A stretch of 31,322 bases of DNA from a bacterium (GTDB lineage: Bacteria > UBP18 > UBA7526): contig JAUWYL010000015.1 in assembly GCA_030615855.1 (NCBI GenBank), positions 1 through 31,322 of the forward strand. Reading direction: 5' to 3'. The position numbers were made by a program, and so were the translations under genes. Numbering within the stretch: position 1 is the first letter of the stretch; each line of letters opens with the position of its first letter. Positions 44-26,925 of the stretch are shown here, in pieces. Below the pieces are notes generated by a model. The model was given only the letters and a program-made list of their open reading frames with translations. It ran no database searches and had not been told where the DNA came from.

Positions 44-1519
44 TCATTCCAAGCCTTTCTCCGCCATCTCTACCGCTCTTACAAGCGCTCTTGCCTTATT
101 CACCGTCTCTTGATATTCTTGCTCTGGAATAGATTCAGCAATGATCCCTGCTCCTGCCTGGATATAGGCCTGGTTTCCTTTAATGACTATGGTTCTTATG
201 GTAATACCGGTATCGAGATTCCCGGAGAAAGAAAAGTAGCCTACTGTTCCGGCATAGGGGCCCCTTCTTACTGGTTCTAACTCATCAATAATCTCCAGGG
301 CCCTTTTTCTTGGAGCACCCACAACTGTCCCAGCAGGGAAGTTAGAGCGCAGGACATCGAAAGAGTCTTTATTTTTTCGTAGTCTTCCGGTAATATCACT
401 CACGATGTGCATCACATGGGAGTATTTTTCGATGACCATGAGTTCATTTACCCTCACGCTTCCCGGTCTTGACACTTTCCCTACATCATCCTTCCCCAGG
501 TCAACAAGCATCATATGTTCTGCCCTATCCTTAGGATGGGCAAGGAGTTCTTTTTCTAAGGCTTGGTCTTCCTTTAAAGTCTTCCCCCGATGCCTGGTCC
601 CGGCAATGGGTCTTACCTCTACTATCCCCCCTTCCAACCTCACTAAAATCTCTGGTGAGGAACCGATCAATCTCAAACCCTTGCACCTTAAATAATACAT
701 ATAGGGGGAGGGGTTGATGGTTCGTAGTGCGCGATAGATATCAAAGGGATCAACGGTAATTTTAGTCTCAAATCTCTGGGAAAGCACGACCTGAATGATA
801 TCCCCTGCTTTAATATATTCCTTCGCCTTCTTTACCTTTCTCTTAAATCCCTCTTTCGTAAAATTCGACTTTATGATAATCGGTGAACGGTGAACGGTGA
901 ACGGTGAACGGTAATGGGGAGTTGGTTTCTTAAGCTGATTTACCAGATTTTCAATCCTCTCGATCGCCTCCTGGTAGGCCTTCTTGGGATCCTTCTTGAC
1001 AGAGGCATTGGAAATCACCTTTATCTTATGCTCTAAATGATCGAAGATGAGAAGGGTATCGGCTAAGAGAAAGATGGCATCCGGAAGGTTCAGGTCATCC
1101 GGGTTCTCGTCCGGGATTTCTTCAAAGAAGCGCACCATATCATAAGCGAGATAGCCCACCATCCCTCCCACGAACCTGGGAAGCCCCTTAACCTTTACAA
1201 ACTTATAATCTGCCATTAACTTTTTCAAAGTAATGAGGGGATCGAATACCTCTTGGATTTTCTTTTTTCCCTCGCTAATGATCTCTACCCTTCTTCCCTT
1301 GCTCTTAAATATTAAAGAGGGATTACTTCCTAAGAAAGAATAGCGACCTAATTTTTCCCCTCTTTCTGCGCTCTCTAAGAGATAGGCATAGTCACCAGTA
1401 TCGATCTTGGTGAAGGCAGAGACCGGAGTTTCAAAGTCTGCTAAGATTTCTCTATAGACTGGGATGAGGTTCCCTTTTTTAGATTTCTGAATAAATTCTT
1501 TTAGACTTGGATAATACAT
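44..1519 (-). CDS. Chorismate-utilising enzyme, anthranilate synthase component I / aminodeoxychorismate synthase component I family (TrpE/PabB)
   Basis: 491 aa; N-terminal 'ETPVSAF' region and C-terminal chorismate-binding signatures (GAPRKRALEIIDELEP, GTVGYF, AGAGIIAES); ATG start at 1517-1519; contains an in-frame heptamer tandem repeat at ~882-916. Confidence 0.8.
   Translation of the reverse strand: MYYPSLKEFIQKSKKGNLIPVYREILADFETPVSAFTKIDTGDYAYLLESAERGEKLGRYSFLGSNPSLIFKSKGRRVEIISEGKKKIQEVFDPLITLKKLMADYKFVKVKGLPRFVGGMVGYLAYDMVRFFEEIPDENPDDLNLPDAIFLLADTLLIFDHLEHKIKVISNASVKKDPKKAYQEAIERIENLVNQLKKPTPHYRSPFTVHRSPIIIKSNFTKEGFKRKVKKAKEYIKAGDIIQVVLSQRFETKITVDPFDIYRALRTINPSPYMYYLRCKGLRLIGSSPEILVRLEGGIVEVRPIAGTRHRGKTLKEDQALEKELLAHPKDRAEHMMLVDLGKDDVGKVSRPGSVRVNELMVIEKYSHVMHIVSDITGRLRKNKDSFDVLRSNFPAGTVVGAPRKRALEIIDELEPVRRGPYAGTVGYFSFSGNLDTGITIRTIVIKGNQAYIQAGAGIIAESIPEQEYQETVNKARALVRAVEMAEKGLE
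882..916. repeat. In-CDS tandem heptamer (GGTGAAC)x4 + degenerate copy; minus-strand CGTTCAC family
   Basis: Read directly from the sequence; encodes 'SPFTVHRSP' in the TrpE-like protein, reading frame preserved. Confidence 0.8.
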
Positions 1520-1531
1520 AGATAAACCTTT

Positions 1532-2293
1532 TTATAAACGAACTGCCACTCCCTTTTTCTTTAAATACTCCTTGGCCTCTCTTATAGTATATTCTCTGAA
1601 GTGGAAGATAGAGGCGGCCAAGACAGCGTCTGCCTTTCCTTCTGTCAGGGCTTGATATAGGTGCTCCAAGTTCCCGGCGCCGCCAGAGGCGATCACCGGA
1701 AGACCAGTAGCCTCAGCAATCAAACAAATGGAATGGATGTCATATCCCTTCTTTGTTCCATCAGCATCAATACTGGTAGGTAAGATTTCTCCTGCTCCCA
1801 AATTCTTTACCTCTTTGGCCCACTCGATAGCATCCTTGCCAGTAGGGGTCTTTCCTCCCTCAACAATCACCTCATATCCTGAGGGCATACTGGGATTTTT
1901 TCTGGTATCGATGGCTACAATGATACGCTTTGAGCCAAACTTTTGAGAGGCCTCTTTCACTAAATCTGGATTTCTGACCGCTGCGGTATTGATGGCTATT
2001 TTACTTGCCCCCGCTTCGAGTATCTTTTCTATATCTTCCAGGTTACCGATCCCTCCTCCAACAGTGAGTGGGATACTTATCGCTTGCGCTACCTTCTCCA
2101 CCCAGGGAAGCATGGTCTTTCTCTTCTCCACAGTAGCACTAATGTCAAGGAAGGCTAATTCGTCTGCTCCTTCTTTCTCATAAAGAAAGGCAATCTCAGC
2201 AGGATTTCCTACATCCTTCAGATCAACGAACTTTACTCCCTTAACCACACGGCCATCCTTGATATCCAGACAGGGAATGATTCTCTTGGTCAC
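1532..2293 (-). CDS. hisF: Imidazole glycerol phosphate synthase cyclase subunit HisF
   Basis: 253 aa; N-terminus 'KRIIPCLDIKDGRVVKGVKF' is the HisF signature (not HisA); GTG start overlapping the stop of the upstream GDH gene (GTGA). Confidence 0.85.
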   Translation of the reverse strand: MTKRIIPCLDIKDGRVVKGVKFVDLKDVGNPAEIAFLYEKEGADELAFLDISATVEKRKTMLPWVEKVAQAISIPLTVGGGIGNLEDIEKILEAGASKIAINTAAVRNPDLVKEASQKFGSKRIIVAIDTRKNPSMPSGYEVIVEGGKTPTGKDAIEWAKEVKNLGAGEILPTSIDADGTKKGYDIHSICLIAEATGLPVIASGGAGNLEHLYQALTEGKADAVLAASIFHFREYTIREAKEYLKKKGVAVRL

Positions 2294-3573
2294 GGATAGA
2301 TTCCTCGTAGTCTTGTGGCGTCTGCTACCCGGAAAACAGCAAGCATATAAGCGGCCATTCTCATATCTACTCTGTGCTTCTTCGCAGCGCGCAGGACATC
2401 ATAGAAAGCCTCAGTCATGATCTCCTCTAACCTTCGATTGACCTCTTCCTCCTTCCAGAAGAGGGCCTGGGTATCCTGAACCCATTCGAAGTAACTGACC
2501 ACCACCCCAGCGGCATTGGCTAAGATATCGGGAATGATGAATATCTTCTTCTTAGCTAATATCTTATCCGCTCTGGGAGTGATAGGACCATTGGCCGCCT
2601 CAGTAATCATCTTGGCTTTTATGATGCCAGCATTCTCCTCTGTGATCTGATTTTCCAGGGCAGCAGGAATGAGGACATCGACCTTTAAGCCAAATAGTTT
2701 CTCATTCGCTCTTTTAAAATCACTGATGAACTGTGGACCCTTGAAGCCCTTAATAACTTTATATTTAGTTCTTTTTACATGTTTTATCAAAGAAGGGATG
2801 TCTATCCCTTTAGGATTGAACAGACCGCCACTGATATCGCTGACCGCTATAATCTTCGCCCCGGCCTCACTCAATAGTTTAGCAGAGGCGCTCCCCACAT
2901 TCCCAAATCCCTGGATGGCAATGGTCGTCCCCTTTAAGGAAAGGCTAATGTGTTTCAATCCTTCCCGGGTAACGAACATCACTCCTCTTCCCGTAGCATC
3001 GAGCCTTCCTTTAGAACCTCCCAGGTGGACCGGCTTTCCGGTAACCACCCCAGGAACAGAGAATCCCTGATGCATACTGTAGGTATCCATCATCCAGGAC
3101 ATAACCTGAGGATTAGTATAAACATCGGGAGCGGCGATGTCCTTCTCCGGACCGATCATCATCATGATCTCGTAAGTAAACCTTCTGGTCAATCCCTCCA
3201 GTTCCTTTAAAGACATCTCCCTGGGGTTACAGTATACCCCTCCCTTGGCCCCTCCAAAGGGAATATTCACTACAGCGCACTTCCAGGTCATGAGCATGGC
3301 TAAGGCAGTAACCTCCTCCAAGGTAACCTCGGGATGATATCTTATCCCTCCCTTCCCCGGACCCCGATCCAGGTTATGCTGTACCCGATAGCCAGTAAAT
3401 ACTCTTAAATGACCGTTATCCATCTTGACTGGTATGGAGACGATCAAAGCCCGTTTGGGAAACTTGAGTTTATCCACCAGTCCTGGATCCAGTTTCAACT
3501 TCTTGGCCACCATATCCAATCGCTCCCGGGCATCGGCTAAGAATTGCATTCCTTTCCGGTAATCTCTGGTCAT
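2290..3573 (-). CDS. gdhA: Glutamate dehydrogenase (Glu/Leu/Phe/Val dehydrogenase family)
   Basis: 427 aa; 'GPGKGGIRYHP' and catalytic-Lys box 'NIPFGGAKGG'; C-terminal Rossmann GFGNVG; SD GGGGGAG upstream of ATG at 3571-3573. Confidence 0.85.
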   Translation of the reverse strand: MTRDYRKGMQFLADARERLDMVAKKLKLDPGLVDKLKFPKRALIVSIPVKMDNGHLRVFTGYRVQHNLDRGPGKGGIRYHPEVTLEEVTALAMLMTWKCAVVNIPFGGAKGGVYCNPREMSLKELEGLTRRFTYEIMMMIGPEKDIAAPDVYTNPQVMSWMMDTYSMHQGFSVPGVVTGKPVHLGGSKGRLDATGRGVMFVTREGLKHISLSLKGTTIAIQGFGNVGSASAKLLSEAGAKIIAVSDISGGLFNPKGIDIPSLIKHVKRTKYKVIKGFKGPQFISDFKRANEKLFGLKVDVLIPAALENQITEENAGIIKAKMITEAANGPITPRADKILAKKKIFIIPDILANAAGVVVSYFEWVQDTQALFWKEEEVNRRLEEIMTEAFYDVLRAAKKHRVDMRMAAYMLAVFRVADATRLRGIYP

Positions 3574-3685
3574 CTTCTCTCCCCCCTTATACGCTGATTT
3601 CTTTGTATTATTTATCTATTAAACTTTTGATTAAAAGCTTTTCTTCAGTTTGCAAGATAGACCTCACTATGTTCGGCAAAACGCG

Positions 3686-4084
3686 TTAGGATTTCACAAA
3701 TTGAAGACCATAACAAACCTTGCCGTAAAATTCTTTAATTTTTCCCACCCTGACATTCAGTTTCATCCCTATCTTTGGTTTATCCACCAATAATCGTCCC
3801 GATGCTCTTATACCGTTCTCAAACTCAACCAGGCCAAAGTCCAGATAGCGCTGATCAAATCCTATTGGTAAGTTCCAGAGTCTGGTATAAGTTAGAAGTT
3901 TGCAAGAACCTTTTAAAGGGGTCTTTTCCCAAGGTTTATATCCTTCTCTCTGGAAATTCGGTTCAATTTCCTGCTCCGGATAGCGCCGATATCCACATTT
4001 TTTACACCGCATTGGGGCGGGATAATGGAGCTGTCCGCATTTAGGACATTTGTAAGCATAGACATTTTTATCTACTCTATACAT
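3686..4084 (-). CDS. DUF35 family protein (Zn-ribbon + OB-fold), partner of thiolase-like protein
   Basis: 132 aa; CPKCG..(x)..CKKCG zinc ribbon followed by OB-fold-like region; 3 nt downstream of thiolase-like gene (classic thiolase/DUF35 pairing); SD AAAGGAG. Confidence 0.7.
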   Translation of the reverse strand: MYRVDKNVYAYKCPKCGQLHYPAPMRCKKCGYRRYPEQEIEPNFQREGYKPWEKTPLKGSCKLLTYTRLWNLPIGFDQRYLDFGLVEFENGIRASGRLLVDKPKIGMKLNVRVGKIKEFYGKVCYGLQFVKS

Positions 4085-4087
4085 TTA

Positions 4088-5311
4088 CTACTCCTTTGCC
4101 AAAATGGTAGCTACAACATTGTTTCCAAATCCTCCAAAATTGATCGCCAGACCATATTTTGGATTCTTAACCTGGCGGCCTTTCTCAGCTTCACTTCGCA
4201 GTTGCTTTACCAGTTCATGTATTTGAGAAATACCGGTGGCCCCCACAGGATGACCTTTGGCCTTCAATCCTCCGGAAGGATTAATTGGTAATCTCCCGGA
4301 AACTTCAGTTTCACCTTTCTCAGCTGCTTCGATTGCCTTACCCTTTTCAAAGAAACCAACCTCTTCAGCAAGACAAAGTTCCAAAATTACAAAGGCATCG
4401 TGAAGTTCAGCAAAAGAAATATCTTGAGGTCCGATACCGGCCATTTTATAAGCCATCTCAGCAGCCAGGCGAACAGCTTTTAAATCCAAAGGATCTTTTC
4501 TATTGTGAACGCAATGGGTGTCGGTAGCGGAACCAATACCGGCAATTCGTACTGGTTTCTTTTTAAATCTCGCAGCCCCATCCATAGCACACATCACAAC
4601 AGAAGATGCTCCATCTGAAACAGGGCACATATGATATAACCGCAAAGGTTCTGAAACGTAAGAATTGACAACAGAAGCATGGCAACTATCTGCAATCCCT
4701 TCCATGGTCACTGGTAATTGGACATGAGCAAAAGGATTTTTTTCTGCATTTAGATGGTCTTTTACGGCAATTAAAGATAACTGTCTTTCTGTCAGACCAT
4801 ATTTAGCCATATAAGCTCTGGTAAACATGGCTGCAAAAGCCGGTAAAGTCAGGCCATAAGGATATTCAACTTCTGGATGAGATAACGTGGCTACAAAATC
4901 TGTTGCTTCCCACCCAGTAACTCTTCGCATCTGCTCTCCCGCAGTGACCAGCACAACATCAACCATTCCAGAGACGATAGCCATATAGCCCATCTTGAAT
5001 GCTGAGGAACCCGAGGCCGGGCCATTGCTGACTAATTCAGCCATTGCCGGTTCCAGATTAAGCGTAGAAACCAGTGCAGATTCAATTCCTGTCTGATGAT
5101 TCAACATACCTGCTCCCATGTTGCCCACGATAACCTGGTCGATCCCCCCATCAATACCAGCATCTTCCATGGCATTTAGCGAGGCATAGGCCATGATATC
5201 GACCAGTTCATAATCACTAAGATTGCCAAATTTGGTATGTCCAATTCCTACTACCCCTACTTTTCTCACCCCGTTAGAAGTTTTTTCTTTTAAAAGTTGT
5301 TTTTTCTTCAT
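4088..5311 (-). CDS. Thiolase-like protein (SCP-x / nonspecific lipid-transfer-type thiolase)
   Basis: 407 aa; C-terminal thiolase motifs 'NPSGGLKAKGHPVGATG'; SD GGAG upstream of ATG 5309-5311. Confidence 0.75.
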   Translation of the reverse strand: MKKKQLLKEKTSNGVRKVGVVGIGHTKFGNLSDYELVDIMAYASLNAMEDAGIDGGIDQVIVGNMGAGMLNHQTGIESALVSTLNLEPAMAELVSNGPASGSSAFKMGYMAIVSGMVDVVLVTAGEQMRRVTGWEATDFVATLSHPEVEYPYGLTLPAFAAMFTRAYMAKYGLTERQLSLIAVKDHLNAEKNPFAHVQLPVTMEGIADSCHASVVNSYVSEPLRLYHMCPVSDGASSVVMCAMDGAARFKKKPVRIAGIGSATDTHCVHNRKDPLDLKAVRLAAEMAYKMAGIGPQDISFAELHDAFVILELCLAEEVGFFEKGKAIEAAEKGETEVSGRLPINPSGGLKAKGHPVGATGISQIHELVKQLRSEAEKGRQVKNPKYGLAINFGGFGNNVVATILAKE

Positions 5312-5325
5312 AGTTTCTCCGGTGC

Positions 5326-5350
5326 CCCATTAGAACTTCTAACGGGGCTC
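5326..5350 (-). other. Intercistronic RNA hairpin (11-bp stem, 1 mismatch) overlapping the GNAT-like stop, immediately 5' of the thiolase SD
   Basis: GCCCCATTAGAA-ct-TCTAACGGGGC; no U-tract follows, so not an intrinsic terminator. Confidence 0.4.
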
Positions 5351-6083
5351 ATCTGTGCCACCCTGGTATTTGGGGATACTCTTCCGGGAGAATGAGAGTA
5401 TCCGATGTTTTCAAAAGTTCTTCTGGCACCGGACGGGTTCCAGTAACCAATCTCTCTTTTGCAGCGAAATAAAGATCCCTGGTCAGAACATAGGTAGGAA
5501 CTCCTCCTAATTCGTGTTGAACATGAAATCTGGGCTCGAGTTGATATTCAATCATCCATCTTCGAAAGCCGATAGGACTTTCAGCCACAATAAACACTTC
5601 TTTCTGATTCAGGATCTCTATGTGGTATTCCATCTTTGCAGCGAACATTTGTGCTCCACAACGAAGGCCTCTCTTTATAGTCATGGTGTGATAACTCATA
5701 CCTAAATCATCATTAACAAGCCGTCCATTACAGATACTTGTGACAACCCCATCTATCGTTCCTACAAGACAATACTCATCACGAACCCGGTAACGGAAGA
5801 ACCCCAACAGTTCGGCATAAAAGCGGGCCGCCACAATATCATAGAAGTCCTTCTCTACCTTTATCAAAGGTTCTATCACTTCAAGAAGCAAAGGAATTTC
5901 TTCTCTTTTTGCCTGCCGGATCACCATTTTTTCTCCAGAAGCCATGGTAATGAATTTGGCTGGATAAGGTAGCATTTCTTTTTGAGGTGGCCGGAGCTTC
6001 ATCTCCAATTCATAAGCGATGTTCATAAACGCCTCCTTTGGTTTCCAATCTCCTTCACGGTTAACTTCTTCTCCATCTTCCAC
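5349..6083 (-). CDS. Hypothetical protein, possible GNAT-like acyl-CoA N-acyltransferase fold
   Basis: 244 aa; weak GNAT motif-A-like segment 'IKRGLRCGAQMFAAKMEY'; GTG start (alternative internal starts possible). Confidence 0.35.
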   Translation of the reverse strand: MEDGEEVNREGDWKPKEAFMNIAYELEMKLRPPQKEMLPYPAKFITMASGEKMVIRQAKREEIPLLLEVIEPLIKVEKDFYDIVAARFYAELLGFFRYRVRDEYCLVGTIDGVVTSICNGRLVNDDLGMSYHTMTIKRGLRCGAQMFAAKMEYHIEILNQKEVFIVAESPIGFRRWMIEYQLEPRFHVQHELGGVPTYVLTRDLYFAAKERLVTGTRPVPEELLKTSDTLILPEEYPQIPGWHR

Positions 6084-7596: not shown

Positions 7597-8431
7597 TCTC
7601 ACCCTTAAGTTCTTCCTCATATCTCTCCAGGGCTATCCTCTCCTCTTTTGTGAACCTTTTCTCCCGGACCAAAAGCTCATCGAAATCCACCAGCTCTCCT
7701 GGAAATTCTGGACCGTGGACGCAGACGAACCTATTCTCTTCTCCTACTCGTACACGACAGCTTCCACACATCCCAGTGCCATCCACCATGATGGTATTGA
7801 GGCTTACCGTAGTGGGAATTTTCTCCTTTTTAGTGATCTCACAGACCTTCTTCATCATGATCAAAGGTCCTATAGCCAGGACCTGATCCATCCTTTTCTT
7901 CTGGGCGATCAATCTCTCCAGGATATCGGTTACCAGGCCCTTCTCTCCATAGGAACCATCGTCAGTAGTGATATAGATCTCCTGGCTTAGATCCTTCATC
8001 TCTTTCTCTAAGATAATGAGCTCCTTAGTCCTAGCTCCCAGGATGGTGGTAATCCTATTCCCGGCCTCTTTTAGCGCTCTTGCAATAGGAACTAAGGGAA
8101 TGATCCCGATGCCCCCTCCAATAGTAAGCACCTCCCCATACTTCTCTATAGAGGTAGGTTTCCCCAAAGGGCCCAAAAGATCCGGGAGGGAATCCCCCAC
8201 CTTCAGGGTAGAGAGCTTCTTGGTAGTCTTTCCCACCTCCTGGAAGATGATGGTTATCCTGTCTTGGGTCCCATCCGCCTCATAGATGGTCAAGGGGATC
8301 CGTTCTCCCTGCTCATCGATTCTCAGGATGACGAATTGACCGGGCAGGGCTTTCTTAGCGATGAGGGGGGCCTCTATTTGGAATAGAGTGATCTCTGGCG
8401 CCACTCTTTTCTTGGCTACTATTTTGTTCAT
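7565..8431 (-). CDS. Ferredoxin-NADP+ reductase subunit alpha-like (NfnA/SudB/PyrK family; FAD + 2Fe-2S)
   Basis: 288 aa; PyrK-like FAD/NAD domain and C-terminal 2Fe-2S Cys motif 'GMCGSCRV...CVHGPEF'; 3' end overlaps start of NfnB-like gene. Confidence 0.8.
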   Translation of the reverse strand: MNKIVAKKRVAPEITLFQIEAPLIAKKALPGQFVILRIDEQGERIPLTIYEADGTQDRITIIFQEVGKTTKKLSTLKVGDSLPDLLGPLGKPTSIEKYGEVLTIGGGIGIIPLVPIARALKEAGNRITTILGARTKELIILEKEMKDLSQEIYITTDDGSYGEKGLVTDILERLIAQKKRMDQVLAIGPLIMMKKVCEITKKEKIPTTVSLNTIMVDGTGMCGSCRVRVGEENRFVCVHGPEFPGELVDFDELLVREKRFTKEERIALERYEEELKGENAQAEARGED

Positions 8432-11044: not shown

Positions 11045-11056
11045 CTAATCTCCCTA

Positions 11057-12007: not shown

Positions 12008-12035
12008 TCTTCCTCCACGTGATTTCCAAGCATAT

Positions 12036-12669: not shown

Positions 12670-12701
12670 TCTATCACCCCCTTTCAATCATTCTTCTAGG
12701 C

Positions 12702-14705: not shown

Positions 14706-14728
14706 TTCATCCTCGTTTCACTCGGATA

Positions 14729-14840: not shown

Positions 14841-16163
14841 TTATGCTTCGATAGTAATAGAGTCTCCGATATCGGTTATCTTTCCCTCTATTGAGGCATG
14901 AATCCTTGCTCCTAAGGCTCCTCTGGGAATATCGGCAATCAAATCTCCCACTTTTACTTTCTCATTCAACTTTACGGTCGGGATCGATTTTGCTCCCACA
15001 TGCTGAGAGAGAGAAATCCTGACAAGGTTCGTCCGATATTCTCTCTTCTCCAGAGGAGCATCAAGATTATATTCCTCTATTCCGATCCTTGAGATGATCC
15101 TCTCTGTAGGAACTTTGCGATACTCTATCATGGAATGGGCTTCCTCCGGAGCCTCCTTATGGGGATTCTTAACCTTGGCCTCTGTCAGTTCCTTTTTAAT
15201 CTCCTGATTCACCCTGAGTGGTGATAGTCCAAAAGGACAAGCATATAGATTACATAAACCGCATTCTGAACAGAGGAAAGCAGCGGTGATGTCATTCAAT
15301 TCCTTTCTCATTTCATACCCCACATGCCTCATTATCTTATGGGGTTTTAAGGAATGGCCGATTAAGTACCGGGGACAGAGTTCAGTGCAGTCGGTGCACT
15401 GCATACAGAGCATGGTCTTCCTGAGGATTTTTCTCATCTCCAGGGTCTTGTTCATAATGACCTGATGGTCTTTGGGCAGGACAATCAATCCCGTGGTGGT
15501 CTTCATTACTGGGGAATCCAAATCTTCAATCAGTTTCCCCATCATAGGTCCGCCATCCAAGACAGAAAAATCATTTATCTTTGGTTCAGCTAATCTTATT
15601 ACCTCTCCCACACTCATCCCCACGGGAACCTTCACTGACTTCGGTCCCTTCACCGCCCCGGATATTGTGAGATAGCGATGGGTGACCGGCCTTCTTTCTA
15701 TAGTATCTGCAACATTGATGAGGGTTCCCACATTATCCACCACCACTCCCACTTGTAGGGGAATTCCTCCCTCAGGGACGATCCTCTTCAATACCTCATA
15801 GACCAGTATCTGCTCATCACCCGCAGGATAGAAGTCACCAAGGATAAATAGTTCGATGTGGGATGGAGGATGTGGGATGTGGGATGTTAAAGCAGCGATG
15901 GCCTCTTTATATTTTTCTTTTAAAGCAATAAATCCCTTCTTGGCTCCCGTGGCCTCCATTACTAGCTTTAAACCCTTGATCACTTTGTTCGCTTGGGTAG
16001 CCATTAATTGCTGATCGATGCGCAAGAGAGGCTCACACTCCGCACCATTGGCGATGACATACTCTACCTTGGTCTCTAACTTCACATGGGTGGGGAAGCC
16101 CGCTCCCCCTGCTCCCACCACCCCAGCATCCCTTACTTTCTCAATAATCTCTTTCTTATTCAT
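14841..16163 (-). CDS. pduS: PduS/RnfC-like Fe-S flavoprotein (BMC-associated oxidoreductase)
   Basis: 440 aa; N-terminus 'VRDAGVVGAGGAGFPTHVKLE' as in PduS/RnfC; two ferredoxin motifs 'CMQCTDCTELCP' and 'CSECGLCNLYACP'; in-frame heptamer repeat (~15855-15886) encoding 'HIPHPPSHI'; my manual base count and the ORF track disagree by 1 nt at this start codon. Confidence 0.8.
   Translation of the reverse strand: MNKKEIIEKVRDAGVVGAGGAGFPTHVKLETKVEYVIANGAECEPLLRIDQQLMATQANKVIKGLKLVMEATGAKKGFIALKEKYKEAIAALTSHIPHPPSHIELFILGDFYPAGDEQILVYEVLKRIVPEGGIPLQVGVVVDNVGTLINVADTIERRPVTHRYLTISGAVKGPKSVKVPVGMSVGEVIRLAEPKINDFSVLDGGPMMGKLIEDLDSPVMKTTTGLIVLPKDHQVIMNKTLEMRKILRKTMLCMQCTDCTELCPRYLIGHSLKPHKIMRHVGYEMRKELNDITAAFLCSECGLCNLYACPFGLSPLRVNQEIKKELTEAKVKNPHKEAPEEAHSMIEYRKVPTERIISRIGIEEYNLDAPLEKREYRTNLVRISLSQHVGAKSIPTVKLNEKVKVGDLIADIPRGALGARIHASIEGKITDIGDSITIEA
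15855..15886. repeat. In-CDS tandem heptamer (GATGTGG)x4.5
   Basis: Encodes 'HIPHPPSHI' inside the PduS-like protein, in frame. Confidence 0.8.
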
Positions 16164-16224
16164 TCCGTCATTCCGTCATTCCGTCATTCCGTCAGTAAGT
16201 TAGACGGATAGACGGATTAGACGT
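16162..16224. repeat. (CATTCCGT)x4 tandem octamer followed by (GACGGATA)x2.5 near-reverse-complement units; includes the PduS start codon
   Basis: Read directly; on the mRNA strand gives ACGGAATG x4 immediately 5' of and including the ATG. Confidence 0.8.
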
Positions 16225-16249
16225 TTCCTTCAAAACTTAAAGTTTTTTA

Positions 16250-17680
16250 TTAGGCAATTCTAAAGTAATCCACCAATACGCATCTTAAGGGTCTAGTGAA
16301 GGTGCTGGCTTTGGTCAATCCTTCTCCAGTGGGGGTGGCGATGCTCATGGTGGCATATCCCTCTCCCTCGTACCCCAACCCGGCATAGGAAGGGGCATTC
16401 TTAACGAAGATGGAAACTTGAGCGGTCTTGGCCATCTTGGTCAGATTGGCAACATTTAAGGAATGCATGATGGCGGTATGCTTATTGGCCTGTTCAACTT
16501 CTACAGCAAAATTAATTGCCTCATCAACATCTTTTACCCTGACAAAAGGGATGACCGGCATGAGCTGCTCTGTCCAGACGAAAGCGTGGTTTCGGTCCAC
16601 TTCACAGAATAAGAGTCTGGTACTCTCTGGTACTTTTACTCCAATCTTGGAAGCGATTAAAGTGGCATCCCTACCAATATACTCCCTACTCACTTTGGGC
16701 TCTTTCCCTGGACCACCTGGTTCCAGTATGGCGGCCTTGGTTAACTTTTCAAACTCATCCTTCTTTAACTCATAGGTCCGGGGATCCTTGCGCAATAGTT
16801 CCAATAATCTATCAGCAATAGCTTCCACGGCGATGATCTCCTTCTCTGCGGTACACAAGACGCCATTGTCAAAACTGGCTCCCTTTATGATGGAGTCAGA
16901 GGCATGCTCTAAGTCTAAAGTCTCATCTATTACTACTGGAGGATTCCCTGGACCAGCAGCAATCACCTTCTTTCCGCAGGCCATGGCGGCTCTCACCACC
17001 CCTGGCCCACCAGTGACTAGGATGAGCTTTATCTTGGGATGCTTGAATAGTGTCTGGGCCTCTTCAATGGAGGGCTTGGCAGCAGTGGTCATCAGATTTG
17101 CTGGCCCACCTGCTTTTATAATCGCTTCATTAAGAATCTGAATGGATTTCAGGGATACCTTCTTGGCTGCCGGATGGGGGGCGAAGACCACACTATTCCC
17201 GGCAGCGATGATGGAGATGGCATTATTTATTATGGTAGAGGAAGGATTGGTAGAGGGAGTCACAGCACCTATTACTCCAAAGGGAGCCATCTCCACTAAG
17301 GTTAAACCATGGTCCCCAGTATAGGCTATGGGGTGTAGATCCTCTACTCCAGGGGTCTTCTGGGCAGATAATAAGTTCTTCTGGACCTTATCCTCCCACC
17401 TTCCCATCTTGGTCTCTTCCCAGGCCAATTTTGCTAAACTCTCTGCCTCCCGGATTGAGGCCTCCCTCATAGCCTCGATATATTTGCTCCTCTTCTCCAG
17501 ACTCTCGCGAAAGAGCTCCCTTTGGGCAATCCGTGCCGCCTCAATGGCTTCCTCCACATTAGGAAAGACCCCCAGGTCCCCAGCACCTGCCTTTACTTCA
17601 GGAGGTCTGGCCTCTTCTTTGGTCATCCTCTCTACTATTTCCTTAACAACTTCTCTTATCTTCTCTGGACTGATCTCCAT
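16250..17680 (-). CDS. CoA-acylating aldehyde dehydrogenase (EutE/PduP family) with N-terminal encapsulation peptide
   Basis: Catalytic Cys box 'FDNGVLCTAEKEII'; start taken at ATG (17678-17680; SD GAGG 6 nt upstream) giving 'MEISPEKIREVVKEIVERM'; ORF-track start 17707 is GTG inside the upstream repeat array. Confidence 0.85.
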   Translation of the reverse strand: MEISPEKIREVVKEIVERMTKEEARPPEVKAGAGDLGVFPNVEEAIEAARIAQRELFRESLEKRSKYIEAMREASIREAESLAKLAWEETKMGRWEDKVQKNLLSAQKTPGVEDLHPIAYTGDHGLTLVEMAPFGVIGAVTPSTNPSSTIINNAISIIAAGNSVVFAPHPAAKKVSLKSIQILNEAIIKAGGPANLMTTAAKPSIEEAQTLFKHPKIKLILVTGGPGVVRAAMACGKKVIAAGPGNPPVVIDETLDLEHASDSIIKGASFDNGVLCTAEKEIIAVEAIADRLLELLRKDPRTYELKKDEFEKLTKAAILEPGGPGKEPKVSREYIGRDATLIASKIGVKVPESTRLLFCEVDRNHAFVWTEQLMPVIPFVRVKDVDEAINFAVEVEQANKHTAIMHSLNVANLTKMAKTAQVSIFVKNAPSYAGLGYEGEGYATMSIATPTGEGLTKASTFTRPLRCVLVDYFRIA

Positions 17681-17703
17681 CTTCATCCTCACTTCGCTCC
17701 GGT

Positions 17704-17789
17704 GCACGGATAATCACGGATTTCATACGGATGAGCACAGATTAAATCCGTGCTAATCTGTATTATTATCAGTGCTAATCCGTGTCTAA
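17704..17789. repeat. Phased CAC(G/A)GAT x4 then ATC(C/T)GTG x4 array (same family as 21443-21523)
   Basis: Unit starts approximately 17704/17714/17725/17735 and 17747/17757/17770/17780 (~10 bp phasing); spans BMV3 stop to AldDH start. Confidence 0.8.
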
Positions 17790-20136: not shown

Positions 20137-20153
20137 TAAAATACAGTATAATA

Positions 20154-21442: not shown

Positions 21443-21523
21443 CACGGATAATCACAGATTCTTTACGGATGGTCACGGATCAAATCCGTGCTAATCCGTG
21501 TTGTTATCCGTGCTAATCCGTGT
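21443..21523. repeat. Phased (C/T)AC(G/A)GAT x4 then ATCCGTG x4 array upstream of the BMC-H gene
   Basis: Unit starts approximately 21443/21453/21463/21473 and 21484/21494/21506/21516; between DGC stop and BMC-H start. Confidence 0.85.
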
Positions 21524-23317
21524 CTATTTACTTTTAAAGAGGCAGACCTTATTTCTTCCTTCTCTTTTAGCGCGATATAAAGATTGGTCTGCCTGGCCGA
21601 TTAGTACCTCCTTACGCATACCCTTCTTATAACCGGCCACCCCAATACTCATCGTAATCTTGACTCTCTTCTTCTTTCCTTTTAGAAAATCAAAGCCCTG
21701 GACCTTCTTCCGCAGGCGTTCTGCCAAGAGACAGGCTCCCTTAGCATCCGTCTCGGGTAGGATAAGGGCGAATTCCTCTCCTCCGTAGCGGGCAGCGATA
21801 TCCGCTCCCCTTATAGCTTGCTTTAAGAGACGGGCGATATTCACTAAAACCGTATCCCCCGCTGGATGGCCATAGGTATCGTTAAATCTTTTGAAGTGAT
21901 CAATATCTAACATAAGCAAGGATAATGGAGTCTCATAACGTTTGGCCTTCCCCATCTCCTGCTCCAGGTAATTCTGAAAGAAGGTATGGGCATAGAGACC
22001 GGTCAATCCATCGTGAATCGCCTGCTCATATAGCATAGCATTCTGGATGGCTATCGCAGCATGGCTTGCCAGGGTAGATAGGAGCTCCTCGTCCCGGCGA
22101 ATGAACGGCTGGCGGGAGACCTTATTGGAGAGGGTAATCACTCCCACCCCCTCTCCCTTAGCCACCAGGGGAAGAGCGAGTAAAGTCTCTGTCCTATGTA
22201 ATTTCTTCTCTGTCTTTAGAGTCTTATAGCGTCGATCCCTTAAGGTATCATTGATTACCATGAGTTTCTTCTTCTCAAAGACGCTACCGGCAATCCCTTC
22301 CCCTATCTTTAGCCTCAGGTGTTTCCTGGCCTCCTCACTTATCCCTGTACCATAAGCGATATAGAGCCTCTTTTTCTTCTCGTGCCAGAGCATGAGGGAT
22401 CCCTTCTCCACCTGAGCCACCTCCATGAATAATCCTACGATGAGCCTCAAAAGTTCTTCCCTCTCCAGGTTGGAACTTATCTTTGTCGAGAGTCTTTGAA
22501 GCATCTGAAGATCCAGGACCCTCTGGTCAAGCTCCTCCTTTGCTCTGGCTAAGAGAGTGCTCTTCTCCTCAAGCGATCTCCAGCTCTGAGAGAGCCTCTT
22601 CCCCATCTGGTTAAATACCTCTCCCAATTCCCCCACCTCATCTCGAGAGGTGATCCTCACCCTGGCTCCCAGATCTCCCTTACCAATTTTCTTGGCAGCT
22701 TGAACTAACCTCTTTATCGGTCGGGTAATGCTGGCTGCCAGGAATAAGGAGATGACGATCCCTAGGATGAGCAGGCCAATGGTCAGAAGAAAGATGCGAT
22801 CTCGAATCTCAGCGATCCTTGCTTTTAAGAGGAGAGAGGAGAATCCCACCCTTACCAGGCCGATCCTTCTTTTTCCAAGAAGAATAGGAACTGCGACATC
22901 GTATACTCCCTCTTCTGTAATCTGTGAGAGGGTGGTCCTTGCTCCCTGGGCCTTGAGGCTCAAGTCATCACTCAAGGTCTTGCCCACCAGGCTCTTATTC
23001 GTGTGGGCCATGACCTCTCCAATATCATTCAAAATGATGACATAATCGATATCCTCACCCTTCTTGCCTATTCCCTCCACTATCTGGGCCAAGGTGATGT
23101 AATCATTGGATAGGATGGCCGTGGTGGAGGTGGTGGCCAGAGCATTGGTAATGTCCTTGGCCCTCTTGATCATCTGGTCAGTGGCCGTTCCCTCCTCCCT
23201 TTTGAGAGTGATACCAGCCACTAAGGACATGATGATCACGATGATCATAATCACAAATCCAGCAATCTTTCCTGCTAAACTAACTTTCATCTGTTTAGAA
23301 GTATCCCGGGCTGACAA
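21524..23317 (-). CDS. Membrane sensor diguanylate cyclase (TM - extracytoplasmic sensor - TM - HAMP - GAF - GGDEF)
   Basis: 597 aa; two hydrophobic segments flanking a ~150 aa sensor region, HAMP-like region, GAF-like region, GGDEF with 'RYGGEEFALIL'; TTG start with SD GGGAGG (alternative ATG at 23288-23290). Confidence 0.8.
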   Translation of the reverse strand: MSARDTSKQMKVSLAGKIAGFVIMIIVIIMSLVAGITLKREEGTATDQMIKRAKDITNALATTSTTAILSNDYITLAQIVEGIGKKGEDIDYVIILNDIGEVMAHTNKSLVGKTLSDDLSLKAQGARTTLSQITEEGVYDVAVPILLGKRRIGLVRVGFSSLLLKARIAEIRDRIFLLTIGLLILGIVISLFLAASITRPIKRLVQAAKKIGKGDLGARVRITSRDEVGELGEVFNQMGKRLSQSWRSLEEKSTLLARAKEELDQRVLDLQMLQRLSTKISSNLEREELLRLIVGLFMEVAQVEKGSLMLWHEKKKRLYIAYGTGISEEARKHLRLKIGEGIAGSVFEKKKLMVINDTLRDRRYKTLKTEKKLHRTETLLALPLVAKGEGVGVITLSNKVSRQPFIRRDEELLSTLASHAAIAIQNAMLYEQAIHDGLTGLYAHTFFQNYLEQEMGKAKRYETPLSLLMLDIDHFKRFNDTYGHPAGDTVLVNIARLLKQAIRGADIAARYGGEEFALILPETDAKGACLLAERLRKKVQGFDFLKGKKKRVKITMSIGVAGYKKGMRKEVLIGQADQSLYRAKREGRNKVCLFKSK

Positions 23318-24536
23318 AGCCCGCCTCCCTTCCCTCTGGAGTAATTCTCAAAGAGCCAAACTGAATAATCCTTATTCTTCCTCCATCTTTAACTGGAGTG
23401 GATAAGAGGACTTCCTTCTTCCTGTAGTCGATCTCATCTATCCTTCCCATTCCTAAGGTATCGCCTTTTTCATCCAAGAGGCCCACCAGTATTCCCTTCT
23501 CGTCTCCAGCAACGATGCTTCTGATATTTCCCAATTCTTTACCCAGCTCATTCAATCTCTCTTGAGGAAGAGGCTTTTGGGTAACAACCAATGTTCCTTC
23601 AAAGCCAGATAGTCTCTCGGCATAAAGAGTCCCGGGAATTTTCATCTCTCTTCCTGTCCTGAAGTAACACCTATCAGTTGCTATTCTCTCCAGGGGAAGT
23701 CTAATCTTCCTGGCCCCTTTAAAATACCTTGTGCTGGGCAGTTCCCTCAACTTCTTCCTCTCCCCCTCACTAGTAAAAGAGGCCTTCTTCGAAACATGAA
23801 TCCGAACGATCTTTTTGGGAGCATAACCCTTAATCAGATGTTCCAACTCGTTCGTCCTCTGTAAAAGAACAATGATCTCTGGAGAGAGGATTTCGATTTT
23901 CGCCCTCTTGAGCGCCCGCCCTCCATCGCTCTGTACCCAGCCTGTGGTATTGATAATGACCGTATTCGCTTTTTTCAAACCAGCCTCTACCAATCGCTTG
24001 ATTCCCACAATAGTGGGTAAAAAGTGCAGGCCTGGGGAATGGGAGCCCACGAAGTAGATGGCAGAAATGCGGGCTTCTTTCAAAAAGACCACCTGTTTCT
24101 TTAAAACCGCCAACCCCAAAGTGCCTGGGATACCGATGTCGCTCTGGCCCGGATCACCATCCAGGACCGCCGGCCTCACTCCCTTCTCCAGGAGCTTATT
24201 CGCTAAATAGGTGGCGAAGAAGGTCTTTCCCGTATCCACCTCCCCCAGAACGAGAATTGTTCTGGCTTTTTCTTTTACAATGCGGGAGATAAGATCATCC
24301 CAGGAGGAAGGGATAGTTCTCTCTTTAATTTTCCTTATCTCGCCAGGCCTCTTTACTTCTATAGAAAGAGTGGATTTTTCTTCGGCCTCTAAAGGAATGG
24401 TCTTGCCCGGAGGAATAAAGACCTCTTCATTTTCTTCGACACTCTTTCCCACCGCCTCTATCTTTCCCCTCTTTACTCTTACCTTTCCCGGCCCTTTCAG
24501 GATATAGATATCACCTTTCTTTACCTTATATTCCAT
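23295..24536 (-). CDS. Clp1/Grc3-family polynucleotide 5'-hydroxyl kinase-like P-loop protein
   Basis: 413 aa; N-terminal beta-rich domain, Walker A 'GEVDTGKT', family-typical 'DGDPGQS' (DxDxGQ) motif, C-terminal domain; strong SD GGGAGG; 3' end overlaps DGC start. Confidence 0.65.
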   Translation of the reverse strand: MEYKVKKGDIYILKGPGKVRVKRGKIEAVGKSVEENEEVFIPPGKTIPLEAEEKSTLSIEVKRPGEIRKIKERTIPSSWDDLISRIVKEKARTILVLGEVDTGKTFFATYLANKLLEKGVRPAVLDGDPGQSDIGIPGTLGLAVLKKQVVFLKEARISAIYFVGSHSPGLHFLPTIVGIKRLVEAGLKKANTVIINTTGWVQSDGGRALKRAKIEILSPEIIVLLQRTNELEHLIKGYAPKKIVRIHVSKKASFTSEGERKKLRELPSTRYFKGARKIRLPLERIATDRCYFRTGREMKIPGTLYAERLSGFEGTLVVTQKPLPQERLNELGKELGNIRSIVAGDEKGILVGLLDEKGDTLGMGRIDEIDYRKKEVLLSTPVKDGGRIRIIQFGSLRITPEGREAGFVSPGYF

Positions 24537-24554
24537 CCTTTACCTCCCTTTCTT

Positions 24555-24620
24555 TATTCGTGTCAATTCGTGTTCTACTTCTTTCGTCTACCCTTTATAG
24601 TTCGCGTTGATTCGTGTTCT
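24555..24620. repeat. ATTCGTGT(TC) tandem/dispersed units spanning the 3' end of the small Lys-rich gene and the intergenic spacer
   Basis: Five units read directly; partly coding (encodes '...EHESTRT...'). Confidence 0.7.
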
Positions 24621-25021
24621 TTAAATACTAAGGTAGGCCAGATCTTTTCTAAGACACCCTTCTCCAGCACCAGAATCTTCTTTATGTCCTCTTTCTTTAT
24701 CTCCACGCTCTGGGGACGTCTCACTACCTCTGGCTTCTCCAAGACAATTCTCTTCCCTTTTTTAGACTTCACGGTTCCTACTACTTCACAGCCCGGGGTC
24801 CTAATGAGTACTTTCTCCCCCCTCTTTAGTTCCCCTATCTTTTTCTCTTTCACCATACTGGGCAGGCACATAGAGATTATTCCGGGATAGAGAGGGACCT
24901 GCTTATGGGTCTCCCAGATCTCTTTCAATACCTCAACCACCAGGGCTGGGTTCTTATACTTCTGGATGAGATTTATCATCTCTTTCTTTAGATTGGGATA
25001 ATCCGATTCCTGAAAGGTCAT
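24575..25021 (-). CDS. Hypothetical Lys-rich small protein (translationally coupled to upstream P-loop kinase)
   Basis: 148 aa; SD GAGGAGGGAG; ATG overlaps upstream stop (ATGA); C-terminal codons lie within an ATTCGTGT repeat array; no recognisable domain. Confidence 0.5.
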   Translation of the reverse strand: MTFQESDYPNLKKEMINLIQKYKNPALVVEVLKEIWETHKQVPLYPGIISMCLPSMVKEKKIGELKRGEKVLIRTPGCEVVGTVKSKKGKRIVLEKPEVVRRPQSVEIKKEDIKKILVLEKGVLEKIWPTLVFKEHESTRTIKGRRKK

Positions 25022-25677
25022 TTCTCCCTCCTCAACGCGGATTTCTTTTTGCTGCTTACTGCTTGGGTAATCTTTTCTACTATTCCCTTATAGTGGGCCA
25101 TCCCGTTATAATCGGTATTGACCACTACTATTGGTATCTTTGATTCTTTTCCAAATCTTAGCAGATCATCTCTATCATCGTGAAGATAGGTCTCTTCCAT
25201 CTCCTCACGTGGTACCAGATGGTTATCCACTCCCGCAGCTAAGGTCGCCTCATGCCTTCTCACATTCCTCCTCCAGCAGGTCTCAAAGGAACAATCAATA
25301 TAGACAATCAAGGATTTATCTATGATTCCCTTATCAAAGTTTTTCAGGGAATGGACATAGTTTGAACGGGAGAACTCAATGAAGATCATCCTTCCCTTCT
25401 TATCCAGTTTCTTCACATCCCTATTCACCTCTTTTAGGATGTCATCCCAGACCTTGGGATCGGTAACTTTATATCCCCCATCCTCTGTCGGTTTACATCT
25501 CTTAAAATTTTTGTCGTTTACGAAAATATTCCAGAGTTTTGGGAAGTCATCCACCCTGACAAATTCCTGGGCAAAGCCTTCCTTCTTTAATCTTGGGGTA
25601 AGCCTCCTATGTAACTCGCTCTTTCCACATCCCGGCCTGCCCAACATAAATATATTCCTGCATTCTTTCTTAGCCAT
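25018..25677 (-). CDS. P-loop kinase, polynucleotide-kinase (T4 Pnk kinase domain)/AAA_33-like
   Basis: Walker A 'MLGRPGCGKSE' 10 aa from N-terminus, downstream 'RVDD' and Arg-rich lid 'WRRNVRR'; start taken at ATG 25675-25677 (SD GAGGG); the ORF-track first codon is TTG. Confidence 0.6.
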   Translation of the reverse strand: MAKKECRNIFMLGRPGCGKSELHRRLTPRLKKEGFAQEFVRVDDFPKLWNIFVNDKNFKRCKPTEDGGYKVTDPKVWDDILKEVNRDVKKLDKKGRMIFIEFSRSNYVHSLKNFDKGIIDKSLIVYIDCSFETCWRRNVRRHEATLAAGVDNHLVPREEMEETYLHDDRDDLLRFGKESKIPIVVVNTDYNGMAHYKGIVEKITQAVSSKKKSALRREK

Positions 25678-25778
25678 CAACCCTCGCTTCGTTCGGGAGT
25701 TTATAGTTGAGCGGCGCGTTTTACTTGCCCCGCTGGTGAATAACTGTTATTCAATTTACCCGTTCCCCCGATTTATCG

Positions 25779-26799: not shown

Positions 26800-26818
26800 T
26801 TTTCTCACTCCGTTCGAG

Positions 26819-26925
26819 GGTTTACTGTTGACCGTTTACGGTAAAAAAAACCGCCTCTCGTTTTCACTCGAGACTGGGCGATCCTGAATGAAATGAAGGA
26901 CCGTACACCGTTAACCGTAAACCTT
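26819..26925. repeat. ACCGT-family element: GTTTACTGTTGACCGTTTACGGT...(A)8...GACCGTACACCGTTAACCGTAAACC
   Basis: 23-nt identity with ~14794-14816; upstream of the TIM-barrel gene. Confidence 0.75.

Follow-up and report, generated by a model that had tools for sequence, protein, structure and literature searches.

STRR hairpins lie between co-transcribed genes of filamentous cyanobacteria, for example hupS-hupL, and have been proposed to act in transcript stability or translational coupling (PMC2670836). TAACTGA direct repeats occur in marine Beggiatoaceae, cyanobacteria, and Bacteroidetes (MacGregor 2015, PMC4679880); their arrays run toward a start codon in 2-6 units, end a few nucleotides away from it, often without a recognisable ribosome-binding site, and show strain-specific insertions and deletions in unit steps (PMC4679880). 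GGGNATC heptamers are found between co-oriented open reading frames (ORFs) in Xanthomonas and Nostoc (PMC4692102), and in H. influenzae a heptamer simple sequence repeat (SSR) in the hmw1A 5'-untranslated region makes up one side of a hairpin that RNase III processes (PMC12721329). In this study, we analysed a tandem octamer array in the leader of a PduS-like gene from an uncultured bacterium of the lineage UBP18; UBA7526. The window, as the term is used here, is the whole stretch of DNA analysed (contig JAUWYL010000015.1, 31,322 nucleotides). The first-pass annotation had read the array as a cascade of small upstream open reading frames (uORFs) that, combined with an occluding RNA structure, could plausibly throttle translation of the Fe-S flavoprotein. 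The feature is best read as belonging to the STRR-like intercistronic repeat-hairpin kind. The octamer array is probably the downstream arm of a dispersed, fast-evolving palindromic tandem-repeat element, with the uORFs as an incidental by-product.

On the minus strand, positions 16192..16161 read as four copies of ACGGAATG, all units exact and without a single mismatch, and TRF reported an array at 16160-16194 (period 8, 4.4 copies, matches 100%). The 16-mer made of two octamers occurs three times, against 0.00 expected (100 shuffles). The ACGGAATG array is non-random, yet locally unexceptional, because such arrays are the rule in the window. Its first three ATGs (ATG1, 16187-16185; ATG2, 16179-16177; ATG3, 16171-16169; all on the minus strand) each open ATG ACG GAA TGA, every TGA overlaps the following ATG as ATGA, and the array terminates in the start codon of the PduS-like gene itself. 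A period of 8 with an A after each ATG therefore gives three 3-codon uORFs with ATGA overlaps, so that the striking cascade is the arithmetic outcome of an 8-nt unit in which ATG is followed by A. A 440-amino-acid ORF has the fourth ATG (16163-16161) as its first in-frame start, and this codon aligns with the M(N/D/S)(K/R)(K/E)EI(I/V) start of 26 relatives (81-93% identity); it is the orthologous start, because these relatives begin at the same position. The first-pass annotation was correct in all these respects: sequence reading and TRF bore out its four exact octamers, its arithmetic for three MTE-stop uORFs chained by ATGA holds, and the ATG that it took as the real start is the one shared with the relatives.

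Since the clade's contigs often break in spacers, as seen at a Logan contig end and in the N runs of UBA7526, we considered whether the array is an assembly artefact of a repetitive region. However, an independent Logan assembly (contig L001) carries an identical leader with 4 copies, and homologous arrays are present in two other samples. An artefact is hardly conceivable.

The array is accompanied by a second one. TRF placed an upstream array at 16200-16223 (period 8, 2.8 copies, 87% matches), with CCGTC cores that complement GACGG in the octamers. The 113-nt leader RNA is predicted to fold at -28.2 kcal/mol (z -4.8). Its 50-nt core hairpin, predicted at -23.3 kcal/mol (z -6.5), has helices of 6, 6, and 4 bp, separated by small internal loops (2x2 and 3x2), through which the three upstream cores pair with octamers 1-3; AUG1 and AUG2 fall in 2x2 loops. 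The predicted fold agrees with the earlier proposal that the near-inverted upstream array pairs with the octamers. The same proposal suggested that this pairing could occlude the start region, but only octamers 1-3 enter the core hairpin, and both the fourth unit and the true AUG fall beyond its 3' end. In longer contexts, the probability of being unpaired was ~0.72 for the true AUG and ~0.57 for the region -15..+13, and neither value falls below those predicted for relatives that lack a hairpin. GUUUUG of the left flank shows a weak predicted pairing with CGGAAU of unit 4 and the start.

The PduS-like start has only a GGA at -11..-9 as a Shine-Dalgarno (SD) sequence, with an anti-SD energy of -3.5 kcal/mol. 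Most window genes have SD sequences of roughly -6 to -13 kcal/mol, and this start is among the weakest. AUG2 and AUG3 have an SD context identical to that of AUG4 (-3.5 kcal/mol each), and AUG1 has none; because the weak context is the same, initiation at AUG2 or AUG3 is conceivable. A scan of 15900-16500 revealed no promoter-like or terminator-like site in the spacer, and Rfam at gathering thresholds gave no match in the window.

To compare the same junction elsewhere, relatives were collected from GTDB genomes, JGI metagenomes, and exact-protein look-ups. Among 5.8 billion proteins, no relative was more than 93% identical; the nearest relatives are metagenome-assembled genomes (MAGs) labelled 'bacterium', one of them UBP18_UBA7526, and the host is not cyanobacterial. 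The operon is syntenic among the relatives and the spacers are hypervariable. At 81-93% protein identity to the window, the junction between the aldehyde dehydrogenase (AldDh) gene and the PduS-like gene takes quite different states (Table 1), with four unrelated unit families among the hairpins, and in L005/L032/L033 arrays of GGTTACTAA are nested in the GGGTGA/CCCTTAC hairpin. The PduS leader is dispensable: it is missing from at least 4 relatives, which have a 1-nt or 9-nt spacer.

Flanks, arms, and the GACGGA-ATG foot are homologous among the leaders of the window, L036, and L037; column identity is 87% for the pair L036 and L037 and 80% across the three. The window has 3+4 cores, L036 has 4+5, and L037 has 2+3. 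In all three, the last 3' unit (GACGGA-ATG) and the AUG lie outside the core hairpin, and the distance from the last unit to the AUG is constant; a weak outer helix reaches this unit and the AUG in the minimum free energy folds of the window and L036. The units of L036 and L037 are GACGGACA, GACGGACT, or GACGGATA, the pattern being GACGGAC(A/T) or GACGGATA, and contain no periodic ATGs. Thus, among the three homologous leaders, the uORF cascade is present in the window only. The clade spacers contain 97 ATG vs 42 CAT, indicating that ATG is not depleted. Because the uORFs are absent from homologous leaders and ATG is not avoided in clade spacers, the cascade is very likely incidental.

These results bear directly on the idea of a dedicated PduS throttle, in which ribosomes would load at AUG1-3, make the MTE peptide, and restart step by step, with the start occluded by the upstream array. 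The uORFs and their ATGA overlaps exist, the SD context of AUG4 recurs at AUG2 and AUG3, the hairpin is significant, and the SD of the PduS start is among the weakest in the window; these points favour the throttle. However, the uORFs are not conserved, being missing from both homologous leaders (L036, L037), the whole leader is dispensable, and the true AUG lies outside the hairpin, with a predicted accessibility equal to that in relatives lacking one. The proposal had also tied the arrangement to the Fe-S flavoprotein gene, whereas the same architecture is generic and precedes many unrelated genes. We therefore regard a dedicated throttle as very unlikely.

The element is found at more than one junction. 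L036 contains a second CCGTCT/GACGGA copy (3381-3474) at the junction of a 90-amino-acid gene with RpiB, with an apex near-identical to that of the L036 PduS leader and an internal GACGGAAT unit. The corresponding junction in the window is only 5 nt long. Because L036 holds copies at two junctions, the CCGTCT/GACGGA family is dispersed. A target-site duplication (ATGA or AATAAAAAA) around the insertion was considered and rejected, since AATGACAxGGGT belongs to the element at another junction too. An origin of the array by capture and amplification of the native start codon was weakened by the second L036 copy, whose internal GACGGAAT lies away from any start; homogenisation to an existing unit variant is equally possible.

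Arrays of this kind recur through the window. All but one of its spacers longer than 40 nt hold a 7-, 8-, or 10-nt tandem array, mostly followed by a near-inverted array, and the 35 TRF rows in 31 kb merge into 28 arrays with periods of 6-12. Several unit families are represented: TAGCACGGAT/AATCTGTGCT at 11045, 17708, and 21477, with relatives at 12688 and 21036; GGTTTACGGTTAACGG at 12008, 14706, 25681, and 26809; CAGTAACCAG/CTGGTTACTG at 14706, 18077, 19371, and 30676; and TTAGTTGGAT/AATCCAAC at 20137 and 30676. Folding showed z<=-3.0 in 9/19 window spacers, with a mean z of -2.75 vs -0.42 in 32 coding controls (Mann-Whitney U test, p=5e-6). The arrays are also present outside the microcompartment locus to which the PduS-like gene belongs. 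Because arrays and folds recur through the window, the PduS leader is one ordinary example of what is probably a genome-wide habit. In 78 distinct clade spacers, the mean z was -3.2 on either strand, and z<-3 was reached in 56%. At the same junction, a Synergistia MAG (L012) with a 48%-identical PduS has (GTGAAAA)4 and then (CTATTCA)4 (-31.1 kcal/mol, z -4.9), indicating that the array habit is not confined to one phylum. At a TRF score of 30, array density failed to distinguish the clade from AT-rich Clostridia; the Synergistia MAG came to light through this comparison.

In the same Synergistia MAG, perfect or near-perfect heptamer arrays of 4-5.6 copies (CGCGTCA, CGTTACG, CGTGACG, AGCTGAT, GTGAAAA, CTATTCA, CACGCGT) were observed in almost every spacer of the homologous microcompartment locus (100-5473).

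The variation in copy number raises the possibility of a phase-variable SSR leader resembling that of hmw1A, in which slippage alters the octamer number and sets PduS synthesis through hairpin length and RNase III-type processing. Copy number does vary among the homologous leaders, the 100% identical units of the window suggest recent slippage, and hmw likewise has an SSR as one arm of a long hairpin (PMC12721329). However, the variation is known between lineages only. Exact-protein look-ups (PduS, EutN) for a second contig with the window allele gave only one Logan contig, which stops 54 nt past the PduS gene. Moreover, both arms change together, rather than one SSR, and the gene in question lies inside a metabolic operon, with like arrays in nearly every spacer, which argues against a locus-specific contingency. 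Phase variation of this leader is accordingly quite improbable.

Another reading is that the palindromic arrays are selfish or neutral DNA that is tolerated and leaves PduS translation unaffected. Strand-symmetric folds, extreme turnover with presence or absence at orthologous junctions, and the lack of ATG avoidance all agree with it. In contrast, the elements keep to gene boundaries and often begin at the stop codon, and a CCGAGYGRRRCGAGGATGAR-ATG module recurs before different genes. In the spacers read, G-rich arms are consistently 5' and C-rich arms 3', and the distance from the last unit to the AUG is fixed in the three homologous leaders. Boundary respect, the SD module, arm polarity, and the constant AUG distance suggest constraint from expression, and we consider purely selfish or neutral arrays unlikely.

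The SD-bearing module CCGAGYGRRRCGAGGATGAR-ATG closes spacer elements in different genomes and before different genes (BMC-T, a 76-amino-acid gene, RpiB, and AldDh). This distribution gives the impression that the repeat element carries the ribosome-binding site along with it.

We favour the reading in which the octamer array is one arm of a dispersed palindromic element. Such an element would carry CCGTCTNN units on its 5' side and GACGGANN units on its 3' side, each as an array, with a loop between them, and would fill the spacer between the aldehyde dehydrogenase and PduS-like genes. Elements of this design (unit periods 7, 8, and 10 nt; several families) appear to occupy most intercistronic spacers of the lineage and would turn over rapidly through insertion or copying to new junctions. 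Both arms would change copy number together through slippage, hairpin-bypass deletion, or template switching; these routes are suggested because a joint two-arm change fits the known routes for palindromes. In the window strain, the 3' arm would have been homogenised to the ATG-bearing variant ACGGAATG. On the operon mRNA, the hairpin may act like other intercistronic repeat hairpins: it would separate two cistrons that are directly coupled in the relatives with a 1-nt spacer, and it perhaps protects or marks the transcript. PduS output is probably low, because the start just 3' of the stem has only a weak GGA as SD sequence, and a low translation rate would be tolerable for a minor microcompartment component. 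The decoys AUG2 and AUG3 would cost little, because ribosomes starting there would terminate on the next AUG and could reinitiate.

Several points weigh against this reading. The strand-symmetric folds fit a purely DNA-level or selfish origin equally well, and after composition control there was no G-U-based asymmetry between sense and antisense folds (Wilcoxon p=0.26 and p=0.49). Recent selection for precisely ACGGAATG x4 might account for the four units being identical throughout. No mobilising enzyme was seen, the genome-wide abundance is extrapolated from 31 kb and ~15 related loci, and the uORFs or the hairpin may yet have an effect on PduS synthesis.

A stronger functional version can also be drawn up. 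Here, paired inverted arrays would be lineage-wide, expression-coupled, portable intercistronic cassettes that tune protein stoichiometry in long operons; in each, an array near the stop would be joined to an inverted array and to either an SD module or a unit near the start. Changes in arm length would rapidly tune, over evolution, how mRNA is processed or how stable it is, as well as translational coupling or decoupling, and the homogenised ATG-bearing arm of the window would represent a selected setting with lowered or buffered PduS synthesis. We give this version a small probability.

Table 1. Features of the PduS-like leader, its flanking genes, the junction states of relatives, and the sites of the CCGAGYGRRRCGAGGATGAR-ATG module. 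Positions refer to the window unless an L number is given; L numbers are our labels for sequences outside it.
Feature	Position or sequence	Strand	Remarks
PduS/RnfC-like flavin Fe-S protein gene	14841..16163	minus	440 aa; Pfam, NCBIfam
Acylating aldehyde dehydrogenase gene	16250..17680	minus	476 aa; PRK15398-like; upstream of PduS-like gene
Left flank of element (TAAAAAACTTTAAGTTTTGAAGGAAA)	16224..16249	minus	kept in L036 and L037
5' arm: CGTCTAAT CCGTCTAT CCGTC	16203..16223	minus	three (C/A)CGTC cores complementary to GACGG
Apical loop UAACUUACU	16194..16202	minus	
3' arm array, four exact ACGGAATG octamers	16161..16192	minus	final three bases are the PduS-like start
Core hairpin (predicted)	16174..16223	minus	-23.3 kcal/mol, z -6.5
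Mini-uORF 1 (ATG ACG GAA TGA)	16176..16187	minus	no SD-like sequence, +0.7 kcal/mol
Mini-uORF 2 (MTE-stop)	16168..16179	minus	weak GGA SD supplied by preceding unit, -3.5 kcal/mol
Mini-uORF 3 (MTE-stop)	16160..16171	minus	TGA overlaps true start as ATGA
AldDh-PduS junction, TAA-A-ATG	L021/L031, L022, L038		1-nt spacer; three distinct relatives
AldDh-PduS junction, TAAAAAGTAAGCATG	L034		9-nt spacer
AldDh-PduS junction, GGGTGA.../...CCCTTAC hairpin family	L003, L029, L030, L005/L032/L033		
AldDh-PduS junction, AGTTGACA family	L002		
AldDh-PduS junction, GGGANNAG family	L039		
AldDh-PduS junction, CCGTCT/GACGGA family	window, L036, L037		
CCGAGYGRRRCGAGGATGAR-ATG module	14708-14725, 17684-17701		
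CCGAGYGRRRCGAGGATGAR-ATG module	L002 5414-5431, 6078-6095		
CCGAGYGRRRCGAGGATGAR-ATG module	L003 3731-3748		
CCGAGYGRRRCGAGGATGAR-ATG module	L004 6267-6284		
CCGAGYGRRRCGAGGATGAR-ATG module	L021 6478-6495		
CCGAGYGRRRCGAGGATGAR-ATG module	L022 4178-4195		

The PduS-like protein contains Complex1_51K (FMN), SLBB, Fer4 (2x[4Fe-4S]), and a C-terminal RnfC_N barrel by Pfam, and it passes the NCBIfam rnfC subfamily cut-off (268 vs 246 bits). Judged by this domain architecture and by its bacterial microcompartment (BMC) neighbours, the gene encodes a PduS-type BMC flavin Fe-S protein. The microcompartment locus spans ~11.1-21.5 kb of the window and includes BMC-H, TIM, PTAC, acetate kinase (AckA), EutN, AldDh, the PduS-like gene, BMC-T, and RpiB, together with two more EutN genes (three in total), an SH3 protein, and a DeoC aldolase. 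From its predicted products, this gene set is of the sugar-phosphate type. All window genes are encoded on the minus strand.

Some start codons within the locus deserve comment. The listed GTG starts at 21476, 21035, and 17707 (BMC-H, TIM, and AldDh) fall within repeat units (ATCCGTG, ATCTGTG), and the one at 17707, given by the ORF tool for AldDh, is probably spurious. In these three genes the Pfam domains start 20-25 residues past the GTG, and downstream ATGs have strong SD sequences of -8 to -13 kcal/mol; because of these domain starts and SDs, the true starts are probably downstream and the spacers longer than listed. For PduS, an ATG at the left end of the L003 element (1566-1613) is in frame with the gene, with no stop between, and a 16-residue N-terminal extension (MTRVAPVPPVTPEKVS) is possible. 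An in-frame MVEM/MVKM pre-start was seen in several relatives (N-termini P0003, P0010, P0015, P0017, and P0022). Gene-caller lengths of full-length clade members range over 438-457 amino acids, with much of the spread outside the N-terminus.

L034 and L035 (the latter equal to L004, UBA7526) encode an identical PduS protein and are identical at 4818/4819 positions upstream, and their spacers differ: L034 has its 9-nt AldDh-PduS spacer at 4992-5000, and the UBA7526 scaffold has 181 N (4820-5000). A second N run in UBA7526 (7812-8027) also lies over a spacer. These runs may stand for repeat elements that the assembly did not resolve, for masking, or for a single population in which the elements are present in some members and absent from others.

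Further observations were made elsewhere in the window. At 881-912, a perfect heptamer array (TTCACCG x4.6, 100% identity) lies within the ORF of anthranilate synthase component I (44..1519, minus strand), between the N-terminal and chorismate-binding domains, and is translated as ...PHYRSPFTVHRSP...; it is the same kind of repeat inside a coding linker, with the frame unbroken. In the spacer 26809-26924, outer inverted heptamer arrays (GGTTTACGGTTAACGGTGTACGGT ... ACCGTAAACGGTCAACAGTAAACC) surround an inner GC-rich stem with a T8 run behind it, an arrangement reminiscent of an intrinsic terminator set within a repeat hairpin. The region 23295-25680 encodes a Clp1-type P-loop polynucleotide kinase homologue (PF16575) and then two small proteins without clear families; it adjoins a GGDEF sensor and has no established tie to the repeats.

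Taken together, the operon spacers of an uncultured lineage are near-saturated with palindromic tandem arrays. Between genomes with proteins ~90% identical, these arrays come and go, relocate, and differ in length, many of them end in a ribosome-binding module, and they explain the fragmentation of clade assemblies at spacers. If such hairpins do affect mRNA fate or coupling, they would offer microcompartment operons a fast route to retune the stoichiometry of enzymes and shell. Lineage-wide, modular, quickly turning-over spacer elements are a more interesting lead than the uORFs, and the locus cautions against inferring regulation from motifs that a repeat generates by itself.

ATGA is the commonest stop-start overlap for termination-reinitiation coupling in bacterial operons, and each mini-uORF stop likewise overlaps the next AUG. 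The ORFs here, however, are 3-codon products of repeat periodicity rather than conserved genes, and they are absent in homologous leaders. Of the properties expected of regulatory uORFs, we found the signals at AUG2 and AUG3 and the ATGA stop position, but no conservation in orthologous leaders. REP, BIME, and REPIN sequences are dispersed proteobacterial extragenic palindromes with one 20-40 nt consensus and a RAYT transposase. They share with the present elements the form of intergenic imperfect palindromes inside operons, often just past stops, with presence/absence polymorphism between strains. Unlike REPs and REPINs, the arms here are tandem arrays from several unrelated unit families, and no RAYT or Y1/HUH transposase domain was found among the window proteins.

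The hmw1A leader is similar in that tandem short units in a transcribed leader make up a hairpin arm and vary in copy number. It differs in being a single phase-variable adhesin locus with at least 10 left-arm repeats and a non-repeat, G-rich right arm, whereas both arms are arrays here and the feature is probably genome-wide. As in the TAACTGA class, the array points toward the start codon and ends at it, and TAACTGG/TAACTGT-like heptamers occur in other spacers of the window. However, the unit here is ACGGAATG, not TAACTGA or a one-off variant, and TAACTGA repeats were reported without predicted structure and with essentially no inverted partner, whereas the arrays here are paired with an inverted array. 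The closest match is to the STRR hairpins, with which the element shares short tandem units in an intercistronic spacer, the capacity to form a hairpin, and, within the window and the related loci, a position between many genes; the tandem short units and the hairpin between co-oriented genes were both found in this leader. The STRR unit is ~7 nt, against 8 nt in this leader and 7, 8, or 10 nt elsewhere in the window, and the host is an uncultured non-cyanobacterial lineage with UBP18 MAGs as its nearest relatives. Unlike STRR hairpins, the array runs into the start codon and makes uORFs, and many clade spacers share a recurring SD-bearing 3' module.

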